The position numbers were made by a program, and so were the translations under genes. The notes beneath the pieces are model-generated. The model made no database searches, was not told the DNA's origin, and saw only the letters and a program-made list of their open reading frames with translations. Of a stretch of DNA of 39,910 nt, positions 1-39,910 are shown in pieces. Source of the DNA: a virus (lineage: Duplodnaviria; Caudoviricetes); IMG/VR virus record IMGVR_UViG_3300037461_000170, positions 1 to 39,910 of that record; one strand, given 5' to 3'. Each line of letters begins with the position of its first letter. Position 1 is the first letter of the stretch.

Positions 1-1893
1 GGTGCTGTCGCGGCAACGGGCTTTGCGCCGACGGTATCGATACCGCGCTATGTGCGCGCGACATGGGCGAAGCTGGTTGCGCCCGCGGCAACCAATGACC
101 CGACCAGCGTCAGCCGCAGCCCGGCAGCCGCGTCGGTCGCAGCGACGGGCCTTGCGCCGGCGATTCAAGTCACAGCCCACGTCATCTGTTCGCCAGGCGT
201 TGGATCGGTCACGACAACGGGCTTTGCGCCGGTAGCGTTCCGACAGGATGGGGCATATCCGGGTGCCGGTACGGCGATGGTTACGGGTCTTGCGCCAACG
301 GCGGCCACGACCGAGCACCGCAATATCGCGGTGGCGGCAGGGTCGATCGTTGCCACCGGCTACGCGCCGAACGCGGACCGCACGGACAACCAGACGTGTG
401 CACCGCCGGTCGGGTCGATCGTTGCGCAAGGGTTCGCGCCGAGCCTGACGGCTGAGGCGCATCAGTTTGCGTATCCCGCTAACGCGAGCCTCGCGGTCAC
501 GGGGCTGGCGCCAACGGCAAACGCGACCGCGCACGTTCTGGCCTACCCTGGGGCCGGCAGCATCGCGGCTGTCGGGCAGACGCCGACGACGGGCGGCGAT
601 GTCATTGCCGAACCGGCAGCGGGCAGCGTCGTTGCCACCGGCTACGCGCCGAGCGCGACCAATAGCGGCGATCGTGCGCTGCGAGTGTCGTGGGCGCGGC
701 TGGTGGTCCCTGCGGCCGAGGGTAGCCGCACGTTGTATCCGGCGGCCGGCAGCATCGCCGCAGTCGGGCAAGCGCCGAGCACAACCGTACCGGGCAACAC
801 GAACGTCTCGCCGGGTGCGGGCAGCATTGCTGGCACCGGCTACGCGCCCACGGCGGGTTGGTATAGCGTCCTCATCGAGTGGTCGGATATCACTGGGGAG
901 GACGGATACAGAATCAAGTGGGGCACGGCCAGCGATACCTACTCGTGGTCGGCGGATGTCGCAGCGGATGCGACCAGCTACACGATCCGTGGGCTGGTGG
1001 GGACGCAGTTGTACTTCGTCCGCATCTACGGCCTCGTTTCCGGCGTCGAGCAGGATCCGTCGGCAGAGATCGTCCTGACGCCGCTGTACGGGTTCGTACC
1101 CGACCCGGCGACGATCGTTGCGCAGGGCTTCGCGCCCACGGTATCGGTCAGCGGCAACGTCTCGGCATCGCCGGCAGCGGGCAGCATTGCGGCGGTAGGC
1201 ATCGCGCCGACGGTCAGTGCATCCGCATACCAGACGGTTGCGCCGGGGGCCGCCAGCGTTGTTGTAGGCGGCTTTGCGCCGACTGCGGATGTCAGCAGTC
1301 CCAGCAATACCAATCGGTTGCCGGCGGCCGGATCGGTCGCGGCAGTCGGGCAAGCGCCGACGGTGCAGGTGTCCGACGTGCGTTCGGCATCGCCTGGGGC
1401 GGGGTCGATCGCGGCCACGGGCTATGCGCCCGGCGTAGAGGTCACGATACGCGCCGACGTGCCCGCCGGCAGCGTGGCCGTTGCCGGGTTCGCGCCGACG
1501 CTCGAACAGACGACGGCCGCAACGCTGGCGCCGGGCGCCGGCAGCATCGCAACGCAGGGCCTCGCGCCCACCGTGCAAGTCTCTGGCGGCGGGTACGAGG
1601 ACGATTACGGCTGGATACCTTCGGGCGGGTGGGAACACCGCAAGCCGAAGAAGCCGAAAACTGAATCTGAACGCGAGGCCGAGGAGCGCCAGGAAGCACC
1701 GGACGCCCCTGCGGTCATCACGCAAACGGCGCACACGCTGCACCTGCCACCGGATGTGCCGGTGGTGACGTATCCCACGCTTGATATGACGCCGTTGGTC
1801 ATACGCGAGCGCAAAGCCCTCCAGAAGTTGCGCGCGGCCCAGCTGCGCGCAGCCCTCGAGGCAGATGACGAAGACGTACTGCTGTTGCTGTAA
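1..1893 (+). CDS. Repeat-rich virion fibre backbone protein, C-terminal part (5'-partial; continues from 38832..39910)
   Basis: Frame 1 is open from base 1 (GAVAATGFAPTVSIPRYVRATW...). It has ~18 copies of P-x-x-G-S-[IV]-x-x-x-G-[FYLQI]-[AT]-P, an Fn3-like segment (~859-1083) and a charged tail ending DDEDVLLLL. Confidence 0.75.
   Translation, partial: GAVAATGFAPTVSIPRYVRATWAKLVAPAATNDPTSVSRSPAAASVAATGLAPAIQVTAHVICSPGVGSVTTTGFAPVAFRQDGAYPGAGTAMVTGLAPTAATTEHRNIAVAAGSIVATGYAPNADRTDNQTCAPPVGSIVAQGFAPSLTAEAHQFAYPANASLAVTGLAPTANATAHVLAYPGAGSIAAVGQTPTTGGDVIAEPAAGSVVATGYAPSATNSGDRALRVSWARLVVPAAEGSRTLYPAAGSIAAVGQAPSTTVPGNTNVSPGAGSIAGTGYAPTAGWYSVLIEWSDITGEDGYRIKWGTASDTYSWSADVAADATSYTIRGLVGTQLYFVRIYGLVSGVEQDPSAEIVLTPLYGFVPDPATIVAQGFAPTVSVSGNVSASPAAGSIAAVGIAPTVSASAYQTVAPGAASVVVGGFAPTADVSSPSNTNRLPAAGSVAAVGQAPTVQVSDVRSASPGAGSIAATGYAPGVEVTIRADVPAGSVAVAGFAPTLEQTTAATLAPGAGSIATQGLAPTVQVSGGGYEDDYGWIPSGGWEHRKPKKPKTESEREAEERQEAPDAPAVITQTAHTLHLPPDVPVVTYPTLDMTPLVIRERKALQKLRAAQLRAALEADDEDVLLLL
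344..398 (+). repeat. 55-bp exact direct repeat, identical to 39856..39910 (window end)
   Basis: CGATCGTTGCCACCGGCTACGCGCCGAACGCGGACCGCACGGACAACCAGACGTG occurs at both sites in the same codon phase. Confidence 0.95.
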
Positions 1894-4041: not shown

Positions 4042-4281
4042 ATGGCGACTTACGAACGACTGGACTACGGCAGCCCCGACGGCTGCCACATCGGCGGCAA
4101 CGCTTCGGACAAGGTGGGGTTCTTCGGGGCCACGCCGACTTCGCGGCGCGCCGCTGCAGCGCAGGCCACCTCCAACGTCGGCACCGCCTCGTCGGCGGAT
4201 GTGACCACGGGCCTCAAGGCGGCGGTGATCGAGATCATGGACACCCTCGCGGCGCTGGGCATCTGGAAGGGTGCGGCCTGA
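4042..4281 (+). CDS. Small capsid-associated protein (decoration/head-fibre-like)
   Basis: 79 aa immediately after the coat gene; GGAG RBS; VGFFGATP motif and C-terminal LAALGI helix. Confidence 0.5.
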   Translation: MATYERLDYGSPDGCHIGGNASDKVGFFGATPTSRRAAAAQATSNVGTASSADVTTGLKAAVIEIMDTLAALGIWKGAA

Positions 4282-4799
4282 TGTTGGTGAGGGGGGAGCA
4301 ATCCCCCCTCCGCATCTTGCATTGCGGGTGTGGGCGCGAGCCCCTGCCCGAGTGGATGGAGGGCGTCGAGACGAGGCTGGACATCGATCCCGACGCCCGC
4401 CCCCACGTCGTTGCAAGCATGACGGACATGGGGGAGATCGGGCCGTTCGACATGGTGTACTCGTCGCACGCGATTGAGCACTTGGCGGCGCATGAGGTGG
4501 TGCTGGCCTTGCAGGAGATGCGGCGCGTGCTCGTTCCCGGTGGACGTGTGGTGGTCATCGTGCCGAACCTGGACGGCGTGCGGCCGACGCTCGACGTGCT
4601 GTACGAGTCGGACGCGGGGCCGATCACTGGATTCGACATGATCTACGGGGCGCGCTGGCTGGTGGCGGCGAACTCTTACATGGCGCACAAGTCGGGATTC
4701 GTCGCTGAGACGCTGAAGGCAGTGCTTTGCGATGCCGGGTTCCGTGACGTGGATGCGGCGCCGCAGTCGTACAACCTCTATGGGACGGGAATTGCGTGA
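4281..4799 (+). CDS. Class I SAM-dependent methyltransferase
   Basis: ILHCGCG (motif I), RLDID, YSSHAIEHL and RRVLVPGG motifs. Confidence 0.85.
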   Translation: MLVRGEQSPLRILHCGCGREPLPEWMEGVETRLDIDPDARPHVVASMTDMGEIGPFDMVYSSHAIEHLAAHEVVLALQEMRRVLVPGGRVVVIVPNLDGVRPTLDVLYESDAGPITGFDMIYGARWLVAANSYMAHKSGFVAETLKAVLCDAGFRDVDAAPQSYNLYGTGIA

Positions 4800-5482
4800 A
4801 GGTCGTTTTCGCTACGCCAACGAGGGACCAGCCGAGCGCCCCCTACCTCTCCGCACTGGAGACCTGCCTGCCGGCGATCGAGGCCGAAGGATTCACGCAC
4901 CAGAACGTAAACGACATCGGATGCCCGTACATCTCGGCATCGCGCTGCCGGATGCTCGGCAAGGCGCTCAAGGTCGGATTCGATTACGTCGTGTTCATCG
5001 ATGACGACGTGTCATGGACGCCGGCCGACATGGTGAAACTGCTCAAGGCCGAAGGCGACGTGGTCGGCGGGACGTATCGATTCAAGAACGACGACGAGAC
5101 GTACATGGGCGTCCCGATGCTGGGCGCGACCGGTAGACCGCTGGTGCGGGACGACGGCTGTATCGAGGCGGATCGGCTGCCGGCGGGTTTCCTGCGCGTG
5201 TCATGGCGCGCGGTGTGGCGCTTCGCTGCGTCCTACCCGCAGCTGGTGGTGTGGGCCGATCCCGACCCGAGCGTGGACCTGTTCAATCACGGCGCGCATA
5301 CGGATGGGCTGTGGTGGGGCGAGGACTACTCGTTCTGTCGTCGCTGGCGCGGCCTGGGCGGTGATGTCTGGCTCGTGCCGGATCTCGACCTGACGCACCA
5401 CGGCAAGGACAAGGCGTATCCGGGGAACTATCACCGATGGCTGCTGAAGCAGCCTGGAGGGAGTGAACATGGCGCTAGCTAA
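4796..5482 (+). CDS. GT-A fold glycosyltransferase (GT2-like)
   Basis: VVFATP start, FIDDD DxD motif, AGFLRV, and WGEDYSFCRRW catalytic-base motif. Confidence 0.8.
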   Translation: MKVVFATPTRDQPSAPYLSALETCLPAIEAEGFTHQNVNDIGCPYISASRCRMLGKALKVGFDYVVFIDDDVSWTPADMVKLLKAEGDVVGGTYRFKNDDETYMGVPMLGATGRPLVRDDGCIEADRLPAGFLRVSWRAVWRFAASYPQLVVWADPDPSVDLFNHGAHTDGLWWGEDYSFCRRWRGLGGDVWLVPDLDLTHHGKDKAYPGNYHRWLLKQPGGSEHGAS

Positions 5483-6116: not shown

Positions 6117-6536
6117 ATGGCGACATTTAACAAAACGTATGCGGCGTCGGAGTACATTGCCGAGAGCACGCTGGACCTTGATCTGGACGACAAGTATATC
6201 TGTCTGACCAACACGGCGCCGACGACGGCGACGACCACGTATAGTTCGCTGACCGAGATTGCATCGGGCAACGGTTACACGACGGGCGGCAATGCGGCGG
6301 CACTGGTTACGTCTGCGCAGTCGTCGGGCACTTACAAGCTCGTTCTTACGTCGCCGGCAACGTGGACCGGGAGCGGCGCAGGCATGGCGACGTTCCGCTA
6401 TGCGGTGCTCTACCAAAACAGCGGCACGAAGCCGGTAGTGGGTTGGTGGGACTACGGTTCCGGCGTGACGCTCGCAGCGGGTGAGACGTTCACGGTCACG
6501 CTTGACGGCACGAACGGCGTGATTCAACTCGCCTAA
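6117..6536 (+). CDS. ~140-aa beta-rich fibre subunit (cassette B); paralogue of 35424..35858
   Basis: TEIASGNGYTTGG, TWTGSG, RYAVLY and VTLAAGETFTV...NGVIQL line up with GEISARGGYAANG, VFTASG, KFAVVG and FTVTSPNTLTIV...NGLFEM. Confidence 0.65.
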   Translation: MATFNKTYAASEYIAESTLDLDLDDKYICLTNTAPTTATTTYSSLTEIASGNGYTTGGNAAALVTSAQSSGTYKLVLTSPATWTGSGAGMATFRYAVLYQNSGTKPVVGWWDYGSGVTLAAGETFTVTLDGTNGVIQLA

Positions 6537-8866
6537 TGCCGCGTCGTCTGCGCATTGCGTTTCCCGGCGGCTCGCCGCAGGCGCCGCGCACGTTGAGCGG
6601 GGATCATGGGCGCTTCACGCTCACGGGCCGCGCGGCGGCGCTGACGAAAGAGGTTCCGCTCGTTGTTAATGACGTTTGGGAGCCGTTGTTTACAAGTAGC
6701 ACGATCGGCGCTAGTCCGACGATGGCGAACGCATGGGTAGCTGGGTGCGTTATCAAGACGACGGGTGAGTGGTTCTTTCCACATCAACAAGTGGCATCCT
6801 CTACGGGCGGTCCGTGGTTGTTTAATCCCGGCACATTAACGTGGCGGCGCACGAATACGAATACAACGGACTGGTGGAAAGGCATAGCCTTCCGCGAGAA
6901 TTACGATGTTTGCTACGACGCCGACCGCGATGTGGTGTGGATCAGCACGGGCGGTCCGGTTGGGTGGAATGGTGCGCCTAGTTCTCCGGTCTATGGCGGA
7001 ATGCGCTATGACTTAGCGACGGACGTTTTCTACAATGTATGGCCGCAATCGGATGGCACTTACGTTGCGACAACGGACGCGCAATACTTCCTGACCGCGA
7101 ACAAGGGTCTAGGGCTTAAAGGCTTCGACCATAAGTGGTTCTATGCCGGCGGCTATCTGTTTACGCTCGGCGGCTGGTCGGTCGGCGGCGATCAATCATT
7201 CCGCAAGATTGACCCGGCGACAAACGTCCAGACATCGCTAACGGCCTACGGTGCCGGGCTCCCGCCGATGAATCAGGACGACGGTCGCTACACGGTGACG
7301 CGCGCGTTCCGAGATTCGCGCAGCAATCGGTTCTATCTGTTCGCGGACGATGGGGCGCTTTACACCTACGACAACGTAGCGAGCGCGGCCACGCGAACGT
7401 GGCAACTGCTCACCACAACGGGCAGCGGCCCGGCGACGACGGTTGGCGATCCGACCGGGGGCGATACAGGCGGCGTGGTCTACGGCTGCGACGAGAACAG
7501 CAACAACATTGTTGCATGGGCGGGGTCAGGTCTGGTCATCGGCACGCCCGGTGGAAACTATAGGCGGTCATGGGTGCTTGACATGAGCACGCTGCAATGG
7601 CGTGCCGGTCCGAGCGCGGTAGGCGGTGATACAGTTCCTGGTCCCGGTGCAGCAGTGCAAATGTCGATCGACTATGACCCCGTAGGCAAGCGCACTATGC
7701 TCGCCTATTCCCCAGCGGGAACGTTTACGACCGAAATATGGGCATTCCGTGGAGGTTCGCCGCATCCTGGGAAGATCACCAGCTTCGCGTTGCCGGCGCA
7801 CGCAGGATCGACCTACGGCGTCAGCTATTACGGATATCCATACACTGCAAACGGTAGCAGCAAGCACACAAATATGTGCTACTGCCCGCTAGACAATCGA
7901 ATTTATGTAACCGGCGGTGATACGGCATCATCGGCAACCGATGGCGTATGGTCGGTGTCGCTTGTAGACGGTTCGTGGCGCCTAGATTATGGGCGCCCGG
8001 CATACCCCGAAACCGTCGCGCCGTTTGCTTATCAGGACAATGAGGGCTTGGAATGGGACAGCAATAGAAGCGCGTTTCTATTCTGGCCGGGCTCTGGCGC
8101 TTTTGGATACGGGCCTGCTAATACTGTTCCGACGAATTCGCCCTATGCAGAAGGAATGTGGTGGTTTGATCCCGTAGCGAAAAGCTGGACACAAGATACG
8201 ACGATGTTTTATGGGTATCTGGTTACTCTCGCATCACCTAATTCTACGGTAGGCAGTTCGGGCGCTTTCGCAAAAACGGGGATGATCCACGGCGGCATTT
8301 ATGATGCGCAGACGGACATCATTTACGCATCCACCAGCGTAGCCGGCATGAGCCGATATGACGTGGCGACGCGCACGCGGCTTGGCACAACGTCTTTCGT
8401 CGGATCGACCGCGAGTCCATTAGCCAGCACGGGTTATACCGGGGTGTATTGGGGCGAAACGAAATGGGAACGCATCGGCCGATGGATATATATGCCGACT
8501 GCACTATACAACGGGACGAATGGCTACTTAGCGCTGGCTAAGTACAACATCGACTCGCGGGCGTTTGTCTGGTGTGCGTTGCCGCCGATTCCGCAGTTTT
8601 CCGGCACGCCATCAATCAAGGAACAACGCATCGGCGTTTCCCGCGACACGATTGTGTGGCCGAAGACAGTCGGACCGGACGGCGTGATTAGCGGCATCTA
8701 CCTGTATGACACGGTCAACGATACGTGGCAGGTGGATACGCAGGTTCCCGGCTACGGCAACATGTTGTGCAATGCGATCACGTCGCTGCCGGACGGTCGC
8801 GTAGCGTTCTCCGGCGGTGTGTTCGGTCCGCAGATGACGCATATCTGGTTCTATGAGGCGTTCTAA
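6536..8866 (+). CDS. Large beta-propeller (Kelch-like) receptor-binding/fibre cargo protein
   Basis: Repeated GG...W/YD blades; Trp/Tyr/Gly-rich. The N-terminus carries one GRFTLTGRAAAL motif. Codon usage is visibly more AT-rich than the flanks. Confidence 0.6.
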   Translation: MPRRLRIAFPGGSPQAPRTLSGDHGRFTLTGRAAALTKEVPLVVNDVWEPLFTSSTIGASPTMANAWVAGCVIKTTGEWFFPHQQVASSTGGPWLFNPGTLTWRRTNTNTTDWWKGIAFRENYDVCYDADRDVVWISTGGPVGWNGAPSSPVYGGMRYDLATDVFYNVWPQSDGTYVATTDAQYFLTANKGLGLKGFDHKWFYAGGYLFTLGGWSVGGDQSFRKIDPATNVQTSLTAYGAGLPPMNQDDGRYTVTRAFRDSRSNRFYLFADDGALYTYDNVASAATRTWQLLTTTGSGPATTVGDPTGGDTGGVVYGCDENSNNIVAWAGSGLVIGTPGGNYRRSWVLDMSTLQWRAGPSAVGGDTVPGPGAAVQMSIDYDPVGKRTMLAYSPAGTFTTEIWAFRGGSPHPGKITSFALPAHAGSTYGVSYYGYPYTANGSSKHTNMCYCPLDNRIYVTGGDTASSATDGVWSVSLVDGSWRLDYGRPAYPETVAPFAYQDNEGLEWDSNRSAFLFWPGSGAFGYGPANTVPTNSPYAEGMWWFDPVAKSWTQDTTMFYGYLVTLASPNSTVGSSGAFAKTGMIHGGIYDAQTDIIYASTSVAGMSRYDVATRTRLGTTSFVGSTASPLASTGYTGVYWGETKWERIGRWIYMPTALYNGTNGYLALAKYNIDSRAFVWCALPPIPQFSGTPSIKEQRIGVSRDTIVWPKTVGPDGVISGIYLYDTVNDTWQVDTQVPGYGNMLCNAITSLPDGRVAFSGGVFGPQMTHIWFYEAF

Positions 8867-19245: not shown

Positions 19246-19544
19246 AGATCGCTAAGGACATTCTCACCGATTACGATAACGAGACCTACGATACCGGGCG
19301 CGTGCTCGCGGTGCTCGTGGTCCTGTCGATGACCGGGATGCAGGCGTGGGCGGTGTACAAGGGCGGCACGTTCGATGCCGGCGCCTACGGTGCGGGCGTG
19401 GCTGCGGTCATCGGTGCGCTCGGGATAGCCATTTTCGGAGACAACGCGAAGCGGGATGTAGCGGCTAAAGGGCTGGGGACGGCGAACAAGGCGAACGAGG
19501 CGAGCGAGGCGAAGGAAGCGGCAAAGGACGCGGAGGACAAATGA
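19242..19544 (+). CDS. Holin (2 TM, charged C-terminus)
   Basis: GGAGG RBS with GTG start; two hydrophobic helices; highly charged tail. Confidence 0.6.
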   Translation: MKIAKDILTDYDNETYDTGRVLAVLVVLSMTGMQAWAVYKGGTFDAGAYGAGVAAVIGALGIAIFGDNAKRDVAAKGLGTANKANEASEAKEAAKDAEDK

Positions 19545-20644
19545 ACATTGCCGACATCCTTGGCTACATCGACTCGCTGAAGCGCCAGTACGGCGGCACG
19601 CTATCCGACATCGCCGCCAACCCGAAGCAAGGGCTGCTTGGCGTGGGCGACAAGCTCAACCAAGGCGCGCGCGAGTGGAACCGCGACATGACACAGCAGA
19701 TGGGCGGCCTGCTGTCGGTGCGCCCCGAGGTGCAGGAACAGAGCATGGAAGGGCTGCTCGGTACGTTGCCGATGCCGGGCGGGATCAACGCTATCCGCGC
19801 GTTTCATGGTAGCCCGCACAAGTTCGACAAGTTCGACCTATCGAAGATGGGCACGGGTGAGGGTGCGCAGGCGTATGGATGGGGCGGATATGTGGCCGAG
19901 TCGCCGGGAGTAGCGATGGATTACAAGTTGCGTTTGTCTCAAGGGAAACCAGCCACAATCGAGGGGGGGAAAGTTCGCGCCGAAGTTCCGGCATGGCTTG
20001 CGAACAAGATTGATGATAATGGCATTGATTGGGCCGTAAACGAATGGACAAAGCGAGTTGATGAAACAAAAGCCGGCATTGCTAAATCAATGCAACCGTG
20101 GCTAGAAGAAGAAAAACTAGCAGGACTTGAAAACACATTGACGGCTTTGCGTGCTGTAAAAGCGGCCGGAGTTCGCAACATTGAACGGCCAGGCAACCTC
20201 TACGAACTCGACCTCCGCTGGCCTGACGCTGCGCGGGAGGCGGCCGACCCGATGGGGCCGCAGCACTTCCTGGACTGGGATAAGCCGCTGAGTCAGCAGG
20301 GTGCGGGGGTACGCGAATCGGTAGCAAAGTTTTTGCCGCCCGCACAAAAAGGTGTCGATCCGAAGTGGGGCGATCTTGGTGGACCGTTCGATCCGTCACA
20401 GGAATATACGGGACAGCAGGTGCTTTCGATGCTGCGGCCAGAGGGCGCGACCGCAAGCAATATTATCGGCGGCGGTGGGCGTGAAACGGCAGAAAAGTTA
20501 CGCAACGCAGGCATCCCCGGCATTCGCTACCTCGACGCGGGCAGTCGCGGCGCAGGCGAGGGCACCGCCAACTATGTCGTGTTCGATGACGCGATCATCG
20601 AACTGCTCAAGCGCAACGGTATCGACATCCCGAAGGGGAAATAA
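19541..20644 (+). CDS. ADP-ribosyltransferase-like protein (ART domain of phage polyvalent proteins)
   Basis: AFHGSPHKFDKFD...GTGEGAQAYGWGGYVAE, GNLYELDL and GIPGIRYLD...NYVVFDD motifs. Confidence 0.7.
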   Translation: MNIADILGYIDSLKRQYGGTLSDIAANPKQGLLGVGDKLNQGAREWNRDMTQQMGGLLSVRPEVQEQSMEGLLGTLPMPGGINAIRAFHGSPHKFDKFDLSKMGTGEGAQAYGWGGYVAESPGVAMDYKLRLSQGKPATIEGGKVRAEVPAWLANKIDDNGIDWAVNEWTKRVDETKAGIAKSMQPWLEEEKLAGLENTLTALRAVKAAGVRNIERPGNLYELDLRWPDAAREAADPMGPQHFLDWDKPLSQQGAGVRESVAKFLPPAQKGVDPKWGDLGGPFDPSQEYTGQQVLSMLRPEGATASNIIGGGGRETAEKLRNAGIPGIRYLDAGSRGAGEGTANYVVFDDAIIELLKRNGIDIPKGK

Positions 20645-31860: not shown

Positions 31861-33998
31861 AAGCGCCGGCAAAGAGCAAGGGCGATGACGCGATCCTCGA
31901 GGAAGCGCGCGAACGCTTCAAGCTCGCCAAGGATGCGGACGCCGAGAACCGCACCGCCGCGCTCGATGACATCCAGTTCGCCTGGAACCTGAACGACGCG
32001 CAGTGGCCCGACTCCGCAAAGAAGTCGCGCGCCGGGCGTCCGCGCCTGACCGAGAACCGGCTGCCGCAGTTCATTCGGCAGGTGGTGAACGCGCAGCGCA
32101 TGAACCGTCCCAGCATCACGGTCGCGCCGGTCGATAGCCAGGGCGATCCCGAGGTGGCCGAGGTGTACGAGGGCATGATTCGGCACATCGAGCAGGTATC
32201 GAAGGCCGACCTTGCCTACGACTCCAGCTTCGAGGCGGCGGTGACTGGCGGAATCGGCTACTTCCGCGTCACCACGCGCTACGTTCCCGGCGAGGGCGGG
32301 AATCAGGAACTCGCCATCCTGCCGATCGACAACGCGTTCAGCGTTTACGACGACCCGTACTACCAACTGCCGGATGCCAGCGACCGCTCATGGTGCTTCG
32401 TTACCGAGTGGGTCGATCGCAAGGAGTTTCCCGCGCGCTACGGCAGCGACCCGTCGCCGTGGGAGGAAGGTGGCACGGGCGACCAGGATCAGGACTGGGC
32501 CGACGAGAAGCGCGTCCAGGTGGCCGAGTACTGGCGCACGAACGGGGATGCCATCGAGCAATTCGTGCTGACCTGCGACCGCATCCTGTCGCGCTCGCAG
32601 TGGGCGGGCACGAAACTGCCGATCATCCCGGTGCTCGGCGAGGTCAAGAACATCGAGGGCAAGCGCTGGCGCAAGAGCCTGATCCGCGATACCAAGGATC
32701 TGTGCAGGGTCAATAACTACTACCTGTCGGCCGAGGTCGAGGCCGTTGCCTTGCAGCCGCGCACGCCATTCATTGGCCCGACGGGCGCATTCGAGACCGA
32801 TGCGGCGAAGTGGGCGACGGCGAATGTCGCCAACCACGCATACATCCAGTACGACCCGGTCGAAGGCGCGATGCAGCCGCAGCGCACCGAACCGCCGACG
32901 TTCCCCGCTGCATTCCGCGAGACGCGCCTCGGCGCCATCGAGGGCATCAAGGCGGTCATGGGCATCTATGACGCGAGCCTGGGTGCGCGCAGCAACGAGA
33001 CCAGCGGCGTAGCGATCGAGGCACGGGCGCAGCAGGGCGATCTGGCGACGTATCACTACCTGGACAACATGACGCGCGCGATTCGGTACGCGGGCGAAGT
33101 GCTGATCGAGTTGATCCCGAAGATCTACGATGCGCCACGCGTGGTGCGGATCATCGCCCCGGATGGAGAAGCCGCGATGGTGGCGGTCAATCAGGTGTTC
33201 GTCGATCCGCGCACGATGCAGGATCGCAACCTGAACCTTGCCAGCGGGCGCTATGACGTGGTGGTCAAGGCCGGCCCGTCCTACCAGACGCAGCGGCAGG
33301 AAGCGAGCACCAAGATTGCCGAACTGGTGAAGGGCTACCCGCCGCTGGCGCAGATTGCCGGCGATCTCCTGTTCCGCAATCTCGATATCCCCGACGCCGA
33401 CAAGATCGCGGACCGGATGAAGCCGCAGAACGAACTCCCGCCGCAGGTGCAGCAGCAGATGCAGCAAATGCAGCAGATGATGGAGCAGGGCAAGCAGTAC
33501 ATCGCGGACCTGGAAGCCAAACTGCAAAAGGCCGAGATGACCAGCGCGGGCAAGGATCTGGACAAGAAGAAGGTGGAACTCGAACTCCAGGCCAAGAAGG
33601 CGCAAGACGAACTGATGTCGGGCGATACGACGGGCGAGGAATTGCTGCGGCTGCGCACCGACAACGCCACGCTGAAGATCCAGAACCAGATGGCGAAGCT
33701 GGAGAAGATGGCGCTCGAACTCGGCATGCGCGAGACGCGCATCAGCGAGAGCGAGCAGCAGATGGGACTTGGACCGGCGGAACCGATCCAGGCGCCGGAT
33801 GTGTCGATCGACGATGGCCCCGACGAGAAGACCATGCTGCGCATGATTGCCGAGATGATGCAGCAGATGCAGGCGCATATGGTAGCGCCGAGGAAGATCG
33901 TGCGCGGGCCGGATGGCAAGGCGGCCGGGGTGGACATCGGGGGCATGATGCGAGTGATTGAACGCGACGCCGAAGGGCGTGCGGTGGGGCTGCACTGA
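31845..33998 (+). CDS. Portal protein, P22-like
   Basis: 717 aa; RPRLTENRL, NETSGVAIEARAQQG and YDVVVKAGPSYQTQRQE motifs; long C-terminal coiled coil. Confidence 0.92.
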   Translation: MDGNVKAPAKSKGDDAILEEARERFKLAKDADAENRTAALDDIQFAWNLNDAQWPDSAKKSRAGRPRLTENRLPQFIRQVVNAQRMNRPSITVAPVDSQGDPEVAEVYEGMIRHIEQVSKADLAYDSSFEAAVTGGIGYFRVTTRYVPGEGGNQELAILPIDNAFSVYDDPYYQLPDASDRSWCFVTEWVDRKEFPARYGSDPSPWEEGGTGDQDQDWADEKRVQVAEYWRTNGDAIEQFVLTCDRILSRSQWAGTKLPIIPVLGEVKNIEGKRWRKSLIRDTKDLCRVNNYYLSAEVEAVALQPRTPFIGPTGAFETDAAKWATANVANHAYIQYDPVEGAMQPQRTEPPTFPAAFRETRLGAIEGIKAVMGIYDASLGARSNETSGVAIEARAQQGDLATYHYLDNMTRAIRYAGEVLIELIPKIYDAPRVVRIIAPDGEAAMVAVNQVFVDPRTMQDRNLNLASGRYDVVVKAGPSYQTQRQEASTKIAELVKGYPPLAQIAGDLLFRNLDIPDADKIADRMKPQNELPPQVQQQMQQMQQMMEQGKQYIADLEAKLQKAEMTSAGKDLDKKKVELELQAKKAQDELMSGDTTGEELLRLRTDNATLKIQNQMAKLEKMALELGMRETRISESEQQMGLGPAEPIQAPDVSIDDGPDEKTMLRMIAEMMQQMQAHMVAPRKIVRGPDGKAAGVDIGGMMRVIERDAEGRAVGLH

Positions 33999-35422
33999 TG
34001 CTGAAGCTGGGCGTGAGCGGCTTTGCGCCGTCGGTGGAGATCAAGCCGTACAACCCGGAACTGCGGAAGTATGTGCGCGCGTGGGACGAGATCCCGGCGT
34101 ACCGGGTGGTCTCACCCGGTGAGACGCTGGCGACGCGGTTCCTGCACCAGGCGCAGCCGCCGAAAGATGCGGACGCGATCGACTTCGGCTGCGGGACCGG
34201 GCGCGGCGGGCTGATGCTGGCGCTGATGGGCGGGATGCGGGTGACGCTGGTGGACTTCGCCGGCAACTGCCTCGACCCGGAAGTGGTCGAGATATGCAAG
34301 ACGCAGCCGGATCGGCTCAAGTTCATGCAGCACGACCTGACGCAGTTGCTGCCGATCAATGCCGCCTACGGGTACTGCTGCGACGTGATGGAGCACATCC
34401 CCGAGGCGGACGTGCAGAAGGTGCTCATCAACGTCCTGCACTCGGCGCGGCACTGCTTCTTCAGCATCGGCACGGAGCCGGACAACCTGGGCGCCGAGAT
34501 CGGCGAAGTGCTGCACGTCACGGTCAAGCCGGCGGCGTGGTGGAAGGAGCAGCTTGCCAAGGCGGGTGCGGTCATCCACTGGCAGGAGATGCACGAGGGC
34601 GGGGTGTCGTTCTACTGCTCGGCGTGGCGCGATGCCAAGGACGTGCTGGTGGCCGGCATCGTTAATGTCCCGCTCGACGTGCTCGAAGCGCAGACGGCGG
34701 CCAACATCCGCGCCGAGTACCGGCAAGTGCTGCCGCACCGCAAGCAGGACCGGGAAGTCATCGTGCTCTGCGGCGGGCCGTCGATGCCGGCGCACCTGGA
34801 CGAGATCAAGAAACTACGCGCCGAAGGGGCCGCGCTGGTGACGGTCAATGGGGCGTATCGGTGGGCGATCGAGCAGGGGCTGGAGCCGTCTGCGCAGATC
34901 GTGCTTGACGCGCGCGAGTTCAATGCGCGGTTCGTGGAACCTGTGACGCCGTACACGCAGTACATGATTGCGTCGCAGGCGCACCCGGCGACGTACGCCG
35001 GCCTGCCGTGGGATCGCACGTTGCAGTGGCACTGCGCGATCAGCGACGAGAACGCGGAGTTGGTGCGCGAGGTTCACGGCTGCTACTACCCCGTGATGGG
35101 CGGATCGACGGTGACGCTGCGAGCGATCCCGTTGCTGCGCATGTTGGGCTACTGGCGGATGCACCTGTTCGGGTTTGACTCCTGCATGGTGGGCGAGCAG
35201 CACCACGCCTATGCGCAGGCAGAGAACGACGGCGAACGCACGGTACCGGTGGTGTGCGGTGGCAAGACGTTCGTGTGTGCCCCGTGGCACCTGTCGCAGG
35301 CGTCGGAGTTCCAGGACATCCTTGGCATTCTCGGCAATGAGGTGGAGTTGGCGGTATACGGGGATGGATTGATCGCGGCCATGATGCAGTCGGGGGCCGA
35401 TTTCTCACAGAAGGAGCAATGA
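33998..35422 (+). CDS. Fused SAM methyltransferase + DUF115/Maf-like glycosyltransferase
   Basis: N-terminal IDFGCGTG and CCDVMEHIP; C-terminal VLCGGPS, VNGAY and GGSTVTLRAI...LGY..MHLFGFDS. Confidence 0.75.
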   Translation: MLKLGVSGFAPSVEIKPYNPELRKYVRAWDEIPAYRVVSPGETLATRFLHQAQPPKDADAIDFGCGTGRGGLMLALMGGMRVTLVDFAGNCLDPEVVEICKTQPDRLKFMQHDLTQLLPINAAYGYCCDVMEHIPEADVQKVLINVLHSARHCFFSIGTEPDNLGAEIGEVLHVTVKPAAWWKEQLAKAGAVIHWQEMHEGGVSFYCSAWRDAKDVLVAGIVNVPLDVLEAQTAANIRAEYRQVLPHRKQDREVIVLCGGPSMPAHLDEIKKLRAEGAALVTVNGAYRWAIEQGLEPSAQIVLDAREFNARFVEPVTPYTQYMIASQAHPATYAGLPWDRTLQWHCAISDENAELVREVHGCYYPVMGGSTVTLRAIPLLRMLGYWRMHLFGFDSCMVGEQHHAYAQAENDGERTVPVVCGGKTFVCAPWHLSQASEFQDILGILGNEVELAVYGDGLIAAMMQSGADFSQKEQ

Positions 35423-35423
35423 C

Positions 35424-35858
35424 ATGGCCGCATCGGCATTCAGTCTGTACAACGCCGCAAAGAAGTACATCATGAATGGGACTATCGTATTGGGCACGAC
35501 GGCGCTGAAGCTCAAGCTCTGCAATAGCGCGAGCAACGCGGCGACGCTCACCCTGTCCACGTTCGCTTCGGTGACGGGCGAGATCAGTGCTCGCGGTGGC
35601 TACGCGGCCAATGGCGATGCGCTGCAGAGCATGGAAGTGACCAGCGTGCTGTCGGCGAAATCGTACTCGTTCGACGCGGCCGATCTCGTGTTCACGGCGT
35701 CGGGTTCGTCGCTGATCAACGTCAAGTTCGCGGTGGTCGGGGTGAGCGGCGGCAAGGCGCTGTGCTACTCGAAGCTGTCCACGTCGCAGTTCACGGTCAC
35801 GAGCCCCAACACGCTGACCATCGTGTTCAGCGCCAACGGCCTGTTCGAGATGCACTAA
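35424..35858 (+). CDS. ~144-aa beta-rich fibre subunit (cassette A); paralogue of 6117..6536
   Basis: AAGGAG RBS; FDAADLVFTASG motif; collinear with the 139-aa protein. Confidence 0.65.
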   Translation: MAASAFSLYNAAKKYIMNGTIVLGTTALKLKLCNSASNAATLTLSTFASVTGEISARGGYAANGDALQSMEVTSVLSAKSYSFDAADLVFTASGSSLINVKFAVVGVSGGKALCYSKLSTSQFTVTSPNTLTIVFSANGLFEMH

Positions 35859-35861
35859 CGC

Positions 35862-37697
35862 ATGTACGCGCTGCCGACCGATCGGGCGACGACGTGGCGG
35901 CCTGGGCTCACGCATAACGGAGGCTTTCCGCATGCGTCGTGGCCGCTGCGGTCGGTGCTGTCGTGGGCTAGTGGCGATCAGGTGTCGCGCATTCAGTCCG
36001 AGATAGACGCGGCACATTCGGCGTATCCGAACGGCGTTATCGTGCGTCTTGCGGCAGGGACGTGGAATCTAAACGGCGGTGATCTGTCGATCCCGTCGAA
36101 TACGGTCTTGCGCGGCGCAGGTCTTTCGGGTGGCGCGCAGTCCACGATCCTGACCTGTACCAACGGGGCGACGGACAACAGCTACCAGCCTGGGGCGCGT
36201 GGTTACACGCCGCTGATTACGGTCGGCACGGGCGGCAGTTACGGCACCAGCGTTGCGTTGTCGTCCAATGCGAGCAAGGGTGCAGAATCGGTCGTGGTGG
36301 CGTCGGCGTCGGGCTTGTCCGTCGGGCAGTACGTGCTGATCGACGAGTTATCAGGCGCCGGCTGGCAGACGGACCCGCAGGGGCTTGGGCAGATTTGGGC
36401 TAACGCTGACTTTAGCGTGGTGTGGCAGCGCCATAATCCGGGGCTTGCTACGGACGATCCGTACCCGGATGCCTGGTCATGGTTTTGTCGTGACGATCGC
36501 CCGCAGAACGAGATCAAGAAGATTTCCAACGTTTCGGGGACCACGATCACGTTCGACTCGCCGTTGCACAAGGGCTACACGACGGCGCGCACTGCGCAGT
36601 TGACGCCCTATAGCGGCATCGTCACGAATGCGGGCGTCGAGGATCTTGCGTGTTCGCATGGCAGTAACGGAAACATCAGGCTCACGGGCGCCGCGTATTG
36701 TTGGGTTGCGAGAGTCGATGCCTCGCATTGGCTGAACGAGAACATCTGTATTGACCATTCGTTCCGCTGCGAACTGCGTGACTCTTACCTGCACGATGCG
36801 TGCTGGCCCGTGCCAGGTGGTGGTGGATACGTCATTTCGATGGGATGGGCAACGTCCGAAGTGCTCATCGAAAACAATATCTCCTATTGGGCATGCAAAA
36901 ACATCGTCGCGCGCAGTGCGGGGACGGCGAGCGTCGTCGCGTACAACTACATGGACGTGGCGTTTGACGATGGTTTCGAGGACTGGCAAGAGGTTCATCT
37001 GAATGCCAGTCACATGGTCGGCCCTCATCATGTGCTGTTTGAGGGCAACTACGCGCCGAACGCGGACAGTGACAAGACGCATGGCAACGCGACTTACCAC
37101 ACGTTTTTCCGCAATCATTTGAGTGGAGTGAGAAAGGCGTATACGTCGTACAGCAACGTCTCGCACAACGATGCCACGCAAGGTGCCGGCATGCAACGAT
37201 GCGCCGGCATGGCAGCATTTAGCCGATACCATTCGTGGGTCGGTAACGTGCTCGGGCGTTCGGGGCAGATGTCGGGTTGGGGTTACGAGGACACCACAAA
37301 CTCTGGGATGGTCAGCGGGACCAATTCTATTTTCGTCTTTGGCTGGGACGACTGGTATTCGTCATACCCAACGGTGGACCCCGACGTGGACTTGTTGGCG
37401 ACCATCTTGCGCGATGGGAACTTCGACTATCTGACGAACTCGGTGCGCTGGCACGACGTTGGCGGATCTGGGGAGCAAACGACGCCGCCGGCCGATAGCG
37501 CGCTGCCCGACTCGCTGTATCTGTCGAGCAAGCCGAGTTTCTTTGGCTCGTACACATGGCCGTGGGTTGAGCCGACGGAGACGACGAAGCTATACACGCT
37601 GCCTGCCAAGCAGCGGTTTGAAGACGGCGATTATTTCGACATTCTCGACGCGACTGCATTGCCGGGTCCGACTAACGTGCGTTGGAGGCCGGCGTAA
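35862..37697 (+). CDS. Pectin-lyase-like beta-helix protein (putative polysaccharide depolymerase/adhesin)
   Basis: RIQSEID...VRLAAGTW...IPSNTVLRGAG start; beta-helix rungs (LIENNI, LFEGNY, FFRNH); C-terminal LPGPTNVRW. Confidence 0.75.
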   Translation: MYALPTDRATTWRPGLTHNGGFPHASWPLRSVLSWASGDQVSRIQSEIDAAHSAYPNGVIVRLAAGTWNLNGGDLSIPSNTVLRGAGLSGGAQSTILTCTNGATDNSYQPGARGYTPLITVGTGGSYGTSVALSSNASKGAESVVVASASGLSVGQYVLIDELSGAGWQTDPQGLGQIWANADFSVVWQRHNPGLATDDPYPDAWSWFCRDDRPQNEIKKISNVSGTTITFDSPLHKGYTTARTAQLTPYSGIVTNAGVEDLACSHGSNGNIRLTGAAYCWVARVDASHWLNENICIDHSFRCELRDSYLHDACWPVPGGGGYVISMGWATSEVLIENNISYWACKNIVARSAGTASVVAYNYMDVAFDDGFEDWQEVHLNASHMVGPHHVLFEGNYAPNADSDKTHGNATYHTFFRNHLSGVRKAYTSYSNVSHNDATQGAGMQRCAGMAAFSRYHSWVGNVLGRSGQMSGWGYEDTTNSGMVSGTNSIFVFGWDDWYSSYPTVDPDVDLLATILRDGNFDYLTNSVRWHDVGGSGEQTTPPADSALPDSLYLSSKPSFFGSYTWPWVEPTETTKLYTLPAKQRFEDGDYFDILDATALPGPTNVRWRPA

Positions 37698-38827
37698 TGG
37701 CGACTCGGGTAGGCAACTGGACGGTCTTTGAGGACGACGCGCCGGGAACTGCGACCGTCACGACCGCATCGCGCACGTCGACATCCGGCAACTTTATCGT
37801 TGTGTTCGTGAAGTGGGAAGACACCGGCACGACGCTGCACTCGACAACGCCGATTAGTGACTCGCGTAGCAATGGCGGATGGGTCAAGCTCGCAGAGGTC
37901 AACTATGGCGGCACTGGCGAGCCTCGCGGCGCGATGTTCTACTGTCCGAACATCACGGGCGGGTCGAGCCACACGATTAGTATTCAGTTCAGCAACACCA
38001 GCGCTGGGTACGTTCAAATTTTCGCTGAAGAATGGTCTGGGCTCGCAACGTCGTCGCCCGCCGATCAATCGGTGCAGACCAATACCGGCATCGGGACGCA
38101 GCCCTATGCTACAAGCGCGATCACCACGACGGAAGCGGGCGTCGTGTTCTTCGGGATTAGCGAATACAACGCGCTAAGTGCAATCAGCGGCACAGCGGGA
38201 GACCCGGATTTCACTATTTCGCTGACAGCAACGTCATCGTTCTTTGCGTACTACATTAGCGGTTCGGCGCAGACGATCACGCCCGGAGCGACAGCAACAG
38301 GCAATTCAACGTGGGTTGCCATTGCGCAGGCGTTCAAAGATGCCAGCGGAGTAACGAATACAGATCGTTCGCCCGGGGTCGGCTCATCGGTTTACGGTGG
38401 CCTCGCCCCGTTGGTCAATCCGCAGTTTGCCTCGCCGTCGGCCGATGCCAGCGACGGCAACTGGACGCCGAGCACCGGCACGGACCTGTACGCGGTCATT
38501 GACGAGACGCTGCGCAGCGATACGGACTATGCGCAGTCGGGCACGAACCCGTCGGGTGACGCGATGATTGTCAAGCTGGCGACGATCAACGATCCAGACA
38601 CGGACGCCGGCCTGCATCTGCAATGGGCGGCGGGCGCGATAGGGCAGACGGGGCAGGTGGTCGGCAGCATCCGGCAGGGCAACAGTCCCGGCACCGAGAT
38701 CGCGGCGTGGACGCACACGAACCTGCCCGTGGGGAGTTATCAGGAATTTGACGACGCGCTGACCTCGACCCAGGTGGGCAACATCACCGACTGGTCGGAC
38801 CTGTATCTGAAGATCGTCGCGAGCTAA
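37697..38827 (+). CDS. Two-domain Ser/Thr-rich fibre accessory protein
   Basis: GGAGG RBS and TAATG coupling; one GxAP unit (PGVGSSVYGGLAP) lies between two beta-rich domains. Confidence 0.6.
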   Translation: MATRVGNWTVFEDDAPGTATVTTASRTSTSGNFIVVFVKWEDTGTTLHSTTPISDSRSNGGWVKLAEVNYGGTGEPRGAMFYCPNITGGSSHTISIQFSNTSAGYVQIFAEEWSGLATSSPADQSVQTNTGIGTQPYATSAITTTEAGVVFFGISEYNALSAISGTAGDPDFTISLTATSSFFAYYISGSAQTITPGATATGNSTWVAIAQAFKDASGVTNTDRSPGVGSSVYGGLAPLVNPQFASPSADASDGNWTPSTGTDLYAVIDETLRSDTDYAQSGTNPSGDAMIVKLATINDPDTDAGLHLQWAAGAIGQTGQVVGSIRQGNSPGTEIAAWTHTNLPVGSYQEFDDALTSTQVGNITDWSDLYLKIVAS

Positions 38828-38831
38828 CGCC

Positions 38832-39910
38832 ATGGCCGGCACGCCGCTGATCGAATCCGGCGATTGCACGAACAGCGGCAACAACACGGCGAGCACGTCG
38901 TGGGCGATTGACCGGCCGGCGCAGGCGGCTGGCGATCTCATCATCTGCCATCTGGTCAGCGATGCGAACGTCACGCATGGCACGCTGCCCGCTGGGCCGA
39001 ATGGCGAGACGGCCGTCGTCATCGCGCAGCACATTGGCGATACCGGGACGGCGACGGTTCGCGTTTCGGTCTGGTACTGGGTAGCAACGGCATCGGCGTC
39101 GGCCGGGACGGTAACGGTCACGCCGAGCGCGACCGAACAGTGGACGGCAACGGTGGCGCGGGTGCCGGCGGGCGAGTTCAGTCCGTCAAGCCCGATCCAA
39201 CATAGCAACTATAACGAGGCGGCGACGACGGGGGCGCCGGATTGCCCCTCGTTCACGGCGACGGCGGCCAATGGACGGCCGGTGTTCTTTGCCGGGATCG
39301 ACGCGGATACCTGTACCGGCATCAATGCCACTTCGCCCAGTTGGACGCTAGCGGCGAATGTGGACCGTGGCGCGGTGACGGGCGTGCTCGCGGTGCGCGA
39401 TACGCTCTCGACGGCGAGCGAGGCGATTTCGTCGGGCGCGTTGACCGGCGTCGATGATGGGCGGGTGGCGGTCGGGTATCTCATCAATCCCGACATCAAC
39501 ACGAATTACGCGCCTGCGCCGGGGTCGATTGTTGTCTCCGGCTTTGCCCCGACGGCTAACAACGGCGAACGGTCGGTGCGCGTCACCTGGGCGCGGCTGG
39601 TCGTGCCCGATGCGGGCATCACGAACACGAACGTCGCCCCGGCCGCTGGAACCATCGTTGCCAGCGGGCAGGCGCCGACGATCCGGCGGGATCACATTTG
39701 CACGCCGGGGGCGGGAAGCATCGCGGCGCAGGGTTTCGCGCCCGTAGCGCAGCGCGCCGATAGCGTCTTTCCGGCAGCCGGCAGTATCGCGGCGGCGGGA
39801 CAGGCGCCCACGGCCAGCGTCACGGACGTGCGCAATATCTCGGTGGCGGCCGGGGCGATCGTTGCCACCGGCTACGCGCCGAACGCGGACCGCACGGACA
39901 ACCAGACGTG
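38832..39910 (+). CDS. Repeat-rich fibre backbone protein, N-terminal part (3'-partial; not in ORF track)
   Basis: ATG 38832 (MAGTPLIESGD...) is open to the window end. An N-terminal beta domain (AGDLIICHL) is followed by 5 GxAP repeats of the same type as in 1..1893. Confidence 0.8.
   Translation, partial: MAGTPLIESGDCTNSGNNTASTSWAIDRPAQAAGDLIICHLVSDANVTHGTLPAGPNGETAVVIAQHIGDTGTATVRVSVWYWVATASASAGTVTVTPSATEQWTATVARVPAGEFSPSSPIQHSNYNEAATTGAPDCPSFTATAANGRPVFFAGIDADTCTGINATSPSWTLAANVDRGAVTGVLAVRDTLSTASEAISSGALTGVDDGRVAVGYLINPDINTNYAPAPGSIVVSGFAPTANNGERSVRVTWARLVVPDAGITNTNVAPAAGTIVASGQAPTIRRDHICTPGAGSIAAQGFAPVAQRADSVFPAAGSIAAAGQAPTASVTDVRNISVAAGAIVATGYAPNADRTDNQT

Follow-up and report, generated by a model that had tools for sequence, protein, structure and literature searches.

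A strand-A-less Fn3 domain in a phage rope protein and a strand-A-like tail on a neighbouring beta-helix protein: a candidate plug-and-socket joint

The window analysed here, a whole stretch of 39,910 nucleotides from a virus of the Caudoviricetes (IMG/VR record IMGVR_UViG_3300037461_000170), represents an almost entire phage genome that encodes a terminase, a P22-like portal, a scaffold and a P22-like coat protein; its CheckV completeness is 64%. The last 55 bases (39856-39910) are identical to positions 344-398, and joining 38832-39910 to 399-1893 yields exactly P0121, a protein of 857 aa that was independently assembled on a 4712-base contig. The gene of this long repeat protein, which we call the rope, is split in the record: the N-terminal part lies at 38832..39910 (+) and runs on via the 55-base overlap into the C-terminal part at 399..1893 (+), and positions 1..398 (+) hold a variant rope allele (1-343) followed by the assembly overlap (344-398). 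Given this overlap and the identity with P0121, the rope gene and the gene of a beta-helix protein are near neighbours and not 36 kb apart. The corrected gene order reads portal, methyltransferase/MptE-like, 144-aa phrog_644 protein, 611-aa beta-helix protein, ORF 37682-38827, rope, scaffold and coat, and the genome is probably circular, with a length of ~39.5 kb. With 18 G-x-[AT]-P matches in its 857 aa and a repeat unit of ~22-24 aa, the rope is likely, by analogy, the backbone of a virion fibre. Methyltransferase, glycosyltransferase and MptE-like genes lie within the virion operon (4281-5482, 33998-35422), likewise in the viral loci L001, L029 and L030, and virion glycosylation by their products is possible. 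Elsewhere in the window, 19541-20644 has a weak match to the ADP-ribosyltransferase of polyvalent proteins (PF18760, E 0.0014).

In the frame of ORF 1..1893 (+), positions 859..1083 (+; P0121 residues 514-588) translate from WYSVLIEW to EIVLTP, as quoted in the first-pass annotation, and encode an Fn3 domain with strands B-G only that is inserted in the rope and is here called the socket. The Pfam fn3 profile (PF00041) matched it at profile positions 12-81 of 84 (E 5.8e-6, 26.9 bits, above the cut-off of 25 bits) and left positions 1-11, that is strand A, unmatched; no other Fn3 match was found in the whole genome. An AlphaFold2 model of the preceding repeat plus the domain reached a mean pLDDT of 59 with an alignment of only three sequences. 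It comprises six strands, the first at WYSVLIEW, with upstream residues 1-25 unfolded (pLDDT <50), and a Foldseek search with the socket model returned Fn3 folds (best E 7.5e-4). Profile match and model thus bear out the earlier proposal that an Fn3-like segment opens abruptly at strand B. Its placement directly after a GYAP repeat was also correct: the repeat at 811..849 (+), the candidate for providing strand A in cis, is followed by a linker of three residues and then by the socket.

A family search with a profile built from eight domains retrieved 43 proteins, 19 of which contain 20 strand-A-less domains, some of them near-copies, that score at least 88 bits; the next score is 55. All 20 sit in rope-like proteins, where they stand behind at least four types of repeat with variable linkers and spacings. 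Identity between sockets of distant ropes is 41-63% with an invariant core, and the sockets of loci L002, L005, L007 and L008 are 80-88% identical and form one close clade. One rope of 1235 aa, P0242, carries two sockets (residues 551-624 and 761-833) and three candidate donor strands. The bacterial-type protein P0265 has a strand-A-less Fn3 domain straight after its signal peptide, and its family is a possible parent of the socket. At L078, from 7626 onward, a rope bears Fn3-like domains of another subtype that apparently have their own first strand, and this locus contains no tail gene. Single-protein searches of viral contigs, using the beta-helix or the Fn3 region as query, gave no matches, nor did a tblastn search of cultured phages with the socket. 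One weak match from a search of genome contigs (L018) was dropped as it was not recovered by the socket profile.

The second element of the proposed joint lies at the end of the beta-helix gene. The ORF at 35862..37697 (+) encodes a 611-aa GH55/pectate-lyase-like predicted beta-helix protein, referred to below as the passenger, and terminates at 37656..37697 (+) in ALPGPTNVRWRPA and the stop codon; the C-terminus quoted by the first-pass annotation was therefore read correctly. This strand-A look-alike, the plug, extends beyond the usual end of the family. Nearly all of the best 120 of 2140 beta-helix matches stop just past a conserved L-P-A-K-x-R, the four closest listed relatives (70-72%) have no tail, and besides the window protein only 1 of the 119 listed relatives (P0016) has a strand-A-like one, which indicates that the tail is an appended tag. 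P0016 has a signal-peptide-like start and ends in a canonical strand-A tail with a profile score of 10.6; its sequence suggests that the same tag exists outside phages. Among the 178 stop-to-stop frames of at least 100 aa examined in the window, no other one has the tail motif at its end, and shuffling the window 300 times produced it once. The tail is also covered by contigs of four other runs, in which the three substitutions listed for it are all synonymous. In a further contig, present in two runs of one study, the only bases shared with the window are the 36 at the tail end, and the flanks differ, as expected of a mobile tag.

The beta-helix fold is indicated by Atlas features (0.98) and by a TM score of 0.87 to beta-helix clusters. 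Pfam gave no direct match to the 611-aa protein itself, and PF12708 is found on many of its relatives. These are mostly bacterial secreted GH55/pectate-lyase-like proteins, and 96-97% of the passenger aligns with bacterial ones. The label 'depolymerase' refers to a predicted activity and derives solely from this family likeness. The passenger begins at the conserved domain start, and an N-terminal virion-binding domain is absent; without such an anchor, the beta-helix would need another means of attachment.

For a quantitative comparison of candidate first strands, we scored them with a strand-A profile built from 387 canonical segments; 387 others, held out for testing, gave a median of 9.4 and a 25th percentile of 5.1. 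The training set came from a search of representative proteins, which returned tandem-Fn3 proteins and no new socket. The window's plug scored 6.9, corresponding to the 35th percentile of held-out canonical strands, whereas the segments upstream of the 20 sockets scored -4.0 to 3.5, all below the canonical 25th percentile and with the window's own segment lowest at -4.0. A smaller strand-A profile gave the same picture. The tails of the relatives' passengers scored -2.7 to 3.2 and overlap the best cis segments (up to 3.5); among the plugs of socket loci the window's tail alone is clearly within the canonical range, and an unrelated radical-SAM-like C-terminus in the socket-less genome G001 reached 7.6. 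Since related tails score poorly and an unrelated C-terminus scores well, co-occurrence rather than likeness has to carry the argument. A tail look-alike in L001 was rejected as a plug: its protein looks radical-SAM-like by eye, and the record lacks Fn3. A strand-A regular expression flagged 0/20 sockets but just 43/171 canonical domains, and for the weakness of this test we relied on the profiles instead.

These scores bear on the simplest alternative, namely that the last rope repeat, G-Y-A-P-T-A-G, serves as strand A in cis, which would leave no strand missing and give the tail some other role. G-x-A-P ropes do have the repeat in the exact strand-A register before strand B: G-[YF]-A-P-x-x-G aligns without gaps with the canonical G-L-T-A-T-A-G in P0121, P0122 and P0123, and similarly in P0261-P0263. 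In this alignment, however, the proline falls in the middle of the strand, the segment scores -4.0, the model shows no such strand, and other ropes have unrelated upstream sequence at other spacings. Completion in cis would also leave unexplained why tail and socket track each other, as described below. The earlier view that upstream residues do not complete the fold is favoured by the scores (-4.0 upstream against 6.9 for the tail) and by the variability of the upstream sequence, and is weakened by the register fit in G-x-A-P ropes. On sequence grounds cis completion is disfavoured, and we regard this explanation as unlikely.

Scans yielded ten socket-bearing loci besides the window. Four of them (L003, L004, L006 and L009) begin within the rope, so that upstream genes are not covered, and were left out of the tally. 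In all seven socket loci with visible upstream genes (the window, L002, L005, L007, L008, L029 and L030), a tail gene is found upstream of the rope. The passengers of L002 and L007 end in LLPGPSNFRRI followed by four residues, those of L005 and L008 end in LLPGPSNFRRIP and LLGAAANFRRVA, respectively, and those of L029 and L030 have LPGPNRPRWRPA followed by 16 residues and LLPGPRNVRWRPR followed by 15 residues, respectively. The shared type is L-P-G-P-x-N-[VF]-R, a strand-A look-alike at or near the end of the gene. This motif was set post hoc, and its end-anchored form missed L029 and L030; it was relaxed once and then gave one match in each. Both loci had been fetched only after motif and idea were set. 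As L002, L005, L007 and L008 represent one close clade, the independent cases number about four. For controls, we took 79 more viral loci, each surrounding a relative of the 139-aa subunit; these partial genomes total 1.10 Mb in 58 clusters, a rough count finds a rope-like frame in 52, none has a socket, and 0/79 have the tail near a stop. A hypergeometric calculation with four lineages against 79 loci gives ~5e-7, a value that overstates the case given the post hoc motif and the partial, redundant controls. The first-pass annotation had suggested examining whether strand-A-less Fn3 domains co-occur with tailed proteins, and they do (7/7 versus 0/79). The DNA pattern of the tail was found in ten viral loci, one being the record of L002 again. 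A motif 81 aa from the end of a protein in L026 and a near-match at a frame end in L024 were taken as chance, both in records without Fn3.

The proteins that carry the tag vary widely: besides the beta-helix of 611 aa, they comprise a lyase/lectin-like protein of ~355 aa, a partial one of 148 aa without assigned family, an Ig-containing one of 467 aa, one of 425 aa without Pfam match and one of 314 aa. The tagged protein is exchanged between phages, and tag and socket are retained. Those at L002 7992-9056, L029 3140-4414 and L030 696-1637 have signal-peptide-like starts (by eye; weaker in L030) and several cysteines and lie among virion genes. The window contains one Fn3 domain and one tail, as does the complete record G002, of which ~60 of 62 kb were scanned for the tail. 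Tail types R-W-R-P and N-F-R-R were compared with socket clades on a tree of 17 rows, from which P0262 and P0264 (pattern mismatch) and the near-copies P0253, P0254 and P0256 were left out; 42-47 of 500 shuffles were as low, which is only suggestive of tail type following socket clade.

The variety of passengers also speaks to the idea that plug and socket are leftovers, without function, of a passenger-Fn3 fusion that broke apart. A truncated fusion would indeed leave a lone strand A before a stop. Yet the three frames behind the beta-helix stop contain no Fn3 remnant, sockets of distant ropes still share 41-63% identity and an invariant core, and the tail has changed synonymously and is present on different passengers, which makes such an origin extremely improbable.

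Directly 5' of the passenger lies the gene of the 144-aa phrog_644 protein (35424..35858, +), a candidate rope-binding fibre subunit, and a second phrog_644 protein of 139 aa is encoded at 6117..6536 (+). The order of 144-aa subunit and passenger recurs in L002, L008, L029 and L030, and the tagged gene is 3' of the subunit gene in 5/5 loci showing both. Immediately 3' of the second subunit, 6536-8866 encodes a 776-aa Kelch-repeat protein, a candidate for another passenger in which the strand-A tag is absent. The constant gene order could be taken to mean that the tail binds another partner, for example the 144-aa subunit, with the six-stranded domain being stable alone or self-pairing; Fn3 scaffolds show swapping of N-terminal strands (title of PDB 4m6a). 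This is very unlikely in view of the 79 control loci, which have a subunit of the same family and no tail: the tail goes with the socket rather than with the subunit.

Fibres in which a rope is covered by small subunits have been described as rope-and-dimer chains for phages GP4, VP1 and A1002 and for the Bas63 whiskers, according to the accessible parts of PMC13730344 and PMC12609058, and in the latter source rope strands of Bas63 complete incomplete sandwiches in trans. The locus resembles the fibres of GP4, VP1, A1002 and Bas63 in that the gene of a ~140-aa subunit neighbours that of a long repeat protein, and, as in the accessible accounts of them, rope strands would complete the incomplete sandwiches of other chains. 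It differs in that the rope itself holds an incomplete domain. The accessible description of the A1002 fibre (PMC13730344) never mentions Fn3 or fibronectin, and in the accessible parts of both sources the A1002 and Bas63 fibres show no tagged exchangeable passenger. Sequence and profile searches detected no homology between the subunits and GP4 gp80; hhalign of the subunit against a single 140-aa GP4 protein, taken as gp80 by its length, gave a probability of 0.1-0.2%, and the model of the 144-aa subunit (pLDDT 48.5) was too poor for a fold search. The step in which subunits bind the rope is therefore an analogy.

The lack of detected gp80 homology would also fit a scenario in which plug and socket bind each other outside the virion fibre, with exported passengers and a structure that has its role at the host envelope or assembles only at lysis. 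The signal-peptide-like starts and several cysteines of the passengers in L002, L029 and, more weakly, L030 point in the same direction. We nevertheless consider this quite improbable, since the genes lie between the portal and the scaffold and coat genes, neither the rope nor the passengers of the window and of L008 have a signal peptide, and tblastn matches of the subunit include phage genes annotated as minor tail protein. Assembly at lysis would also be compatible with a plug and socket on a fibre.

Overall, we favour, with a probability of about 0.75, the reading that the C-terminal tail of the beta-helix protein fills the strand-A gap of the rope's Fn3 domain in trans and would thereby hang the beta-helix on a likely virion fibre. 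The sequences directly show the absent strand, the tail, the co-occurrence of the two and the swapping of passengers. We propose that, as in rope-and-dimer fibres, the 144- and 139-aa subunits sit on the rope repeats, which would then not complete the Fn3 domain. The plug P-G-P-T-N-V-R-W could then pair with strand B and close the hydrophobic core, forming a non-covalent tag-and-catcher joint with one passenger per socket and no polymerisation. Any protein gaining a tail of ~12 residues would become mountable, and a lineage could swap glycan-binding or glycan-cutting heads acquired from proteins that bacteria secrete, with no need for fusion to a structural gene. More speculatively, a clip-on joint would allow an exported, disulfide-bonded passenger to be loaded at lysis, which would not apply to the passenger of the window.

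A second split domain of the same logic and opposite polarity, with the rope as donor, is suggested by the sequence of the gene between passenger and rope. The C-terminal domain of ORF 37682-38827 (38423..38827, +) is one strand short of its relatives and ends after an I-T-D-W strand. A similar module in the ropes P0148 (three copies) and P0186, linked by weak phmmer scores and mainly by motif, runs on in cis into a V-x-V-[ST]-W-x-x-L-x-x-P strand; there the module is complete at its C-terminal side and apparently cut N-terminally. Strands of the V-x-V-[ST]-W type occur twice between the repeats of the window's rope, at 39570..39608 (+; P0121 residues 247-259) and 673..711 (+; residues 452-464), as candidate donors, and one to three times in P0122, P0123, P0124 and P0242. 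A tblastn search of cultured phages with this domain found no match. Translation of the ORF probably starts at the ATG that overlaps the stop codon of the beta-helix gene at 37697, and one rope-type repeat lies between its two domains (~38525-38570). Ropes of uncultured phages could then be molecular plugboards that, in addition to binding fibre subunits, hold halves of at least two split domains (acceptor Fn3 and donor V-x-V-[ST]-W) and onto which short terminal tags clip enzymes and lectins taken from the secretomes of bacteria, in clade-specific pairs, with some passengers folded after export and loaded at lysis. To this wider picture we would give slightly less than even odds.

Donor-strand complementation is known from chaperone-usher and type V pili, where an Ig-like sandwich short of one strand receives it from the terminal extension of another chain. 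The socket would likewise be an acceptor fold without one strand, with a candidate for the missing strand at the terminus of another chain. In contrast to these pili, the fold is Fn3, the strand is A and not G as in pilins, an unrelated passenger would be the donor, and the result would be a single joint and not a polymer. Pilin-type subunits accept and donate, whereas here a strand-A tail is absent from the rope and a socket from the passenger, and no chaperone, usher, protease or similar assembly machinery was found among the 30 protein queries scanned. SpyTag/SpyCatcher offers a familiar tag-and-catcher comparison; unlike there, no isopeptide chemistry is implied for plug and socket. Phage tailspike depolymerases carry N-terminal anchor domains. 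The passenger resembles them as a predicted beta-helix glycan-active module among virion genes that is exchanged between phages, but it has no N-terminal anchor and attachment would be via a C-terminal strand of 12 residues.

Strand exchange in Fn3 folds themselves is indicated by the titles of PDB 5j6z (anastellin bound to strands A and B of FN III-3) and PDB 4m6a (strand-swapped Tencon-type Fn3 scaffolds), which imply that Fn3-like sandwiches can accept N-terminal strands from another chain. Those exchanges, as far as the titles convey, are proteolytic, engineered or accidental, whereas here the genome encodes the split, which is conserved and goes together with a tag at the end of a gene. 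A preprint on archaeal pili (bioRxiv 10.64898/2026.09.13.751334) was set aside as irrelevant on the part available. An encoded natural split-Fn3 docking system was not found in the openly accessible literature searched. Donor-strand complementation and rope fibres are themselves already known.

In conclusion, if the proposed joint is real, phages could change receptor-binding or capsule-cutting modules through a 12-residue tail on a captured gene and not by recombination inside the fibre gene. It would explain how anchor-less enzyme genes in the virion operons of environmental phages achieve attachment of their products. Plug and socket would also represent a natural, small and possibly orthogonal tag-and-catcher pair on the fold most used as an engineering scaffold.
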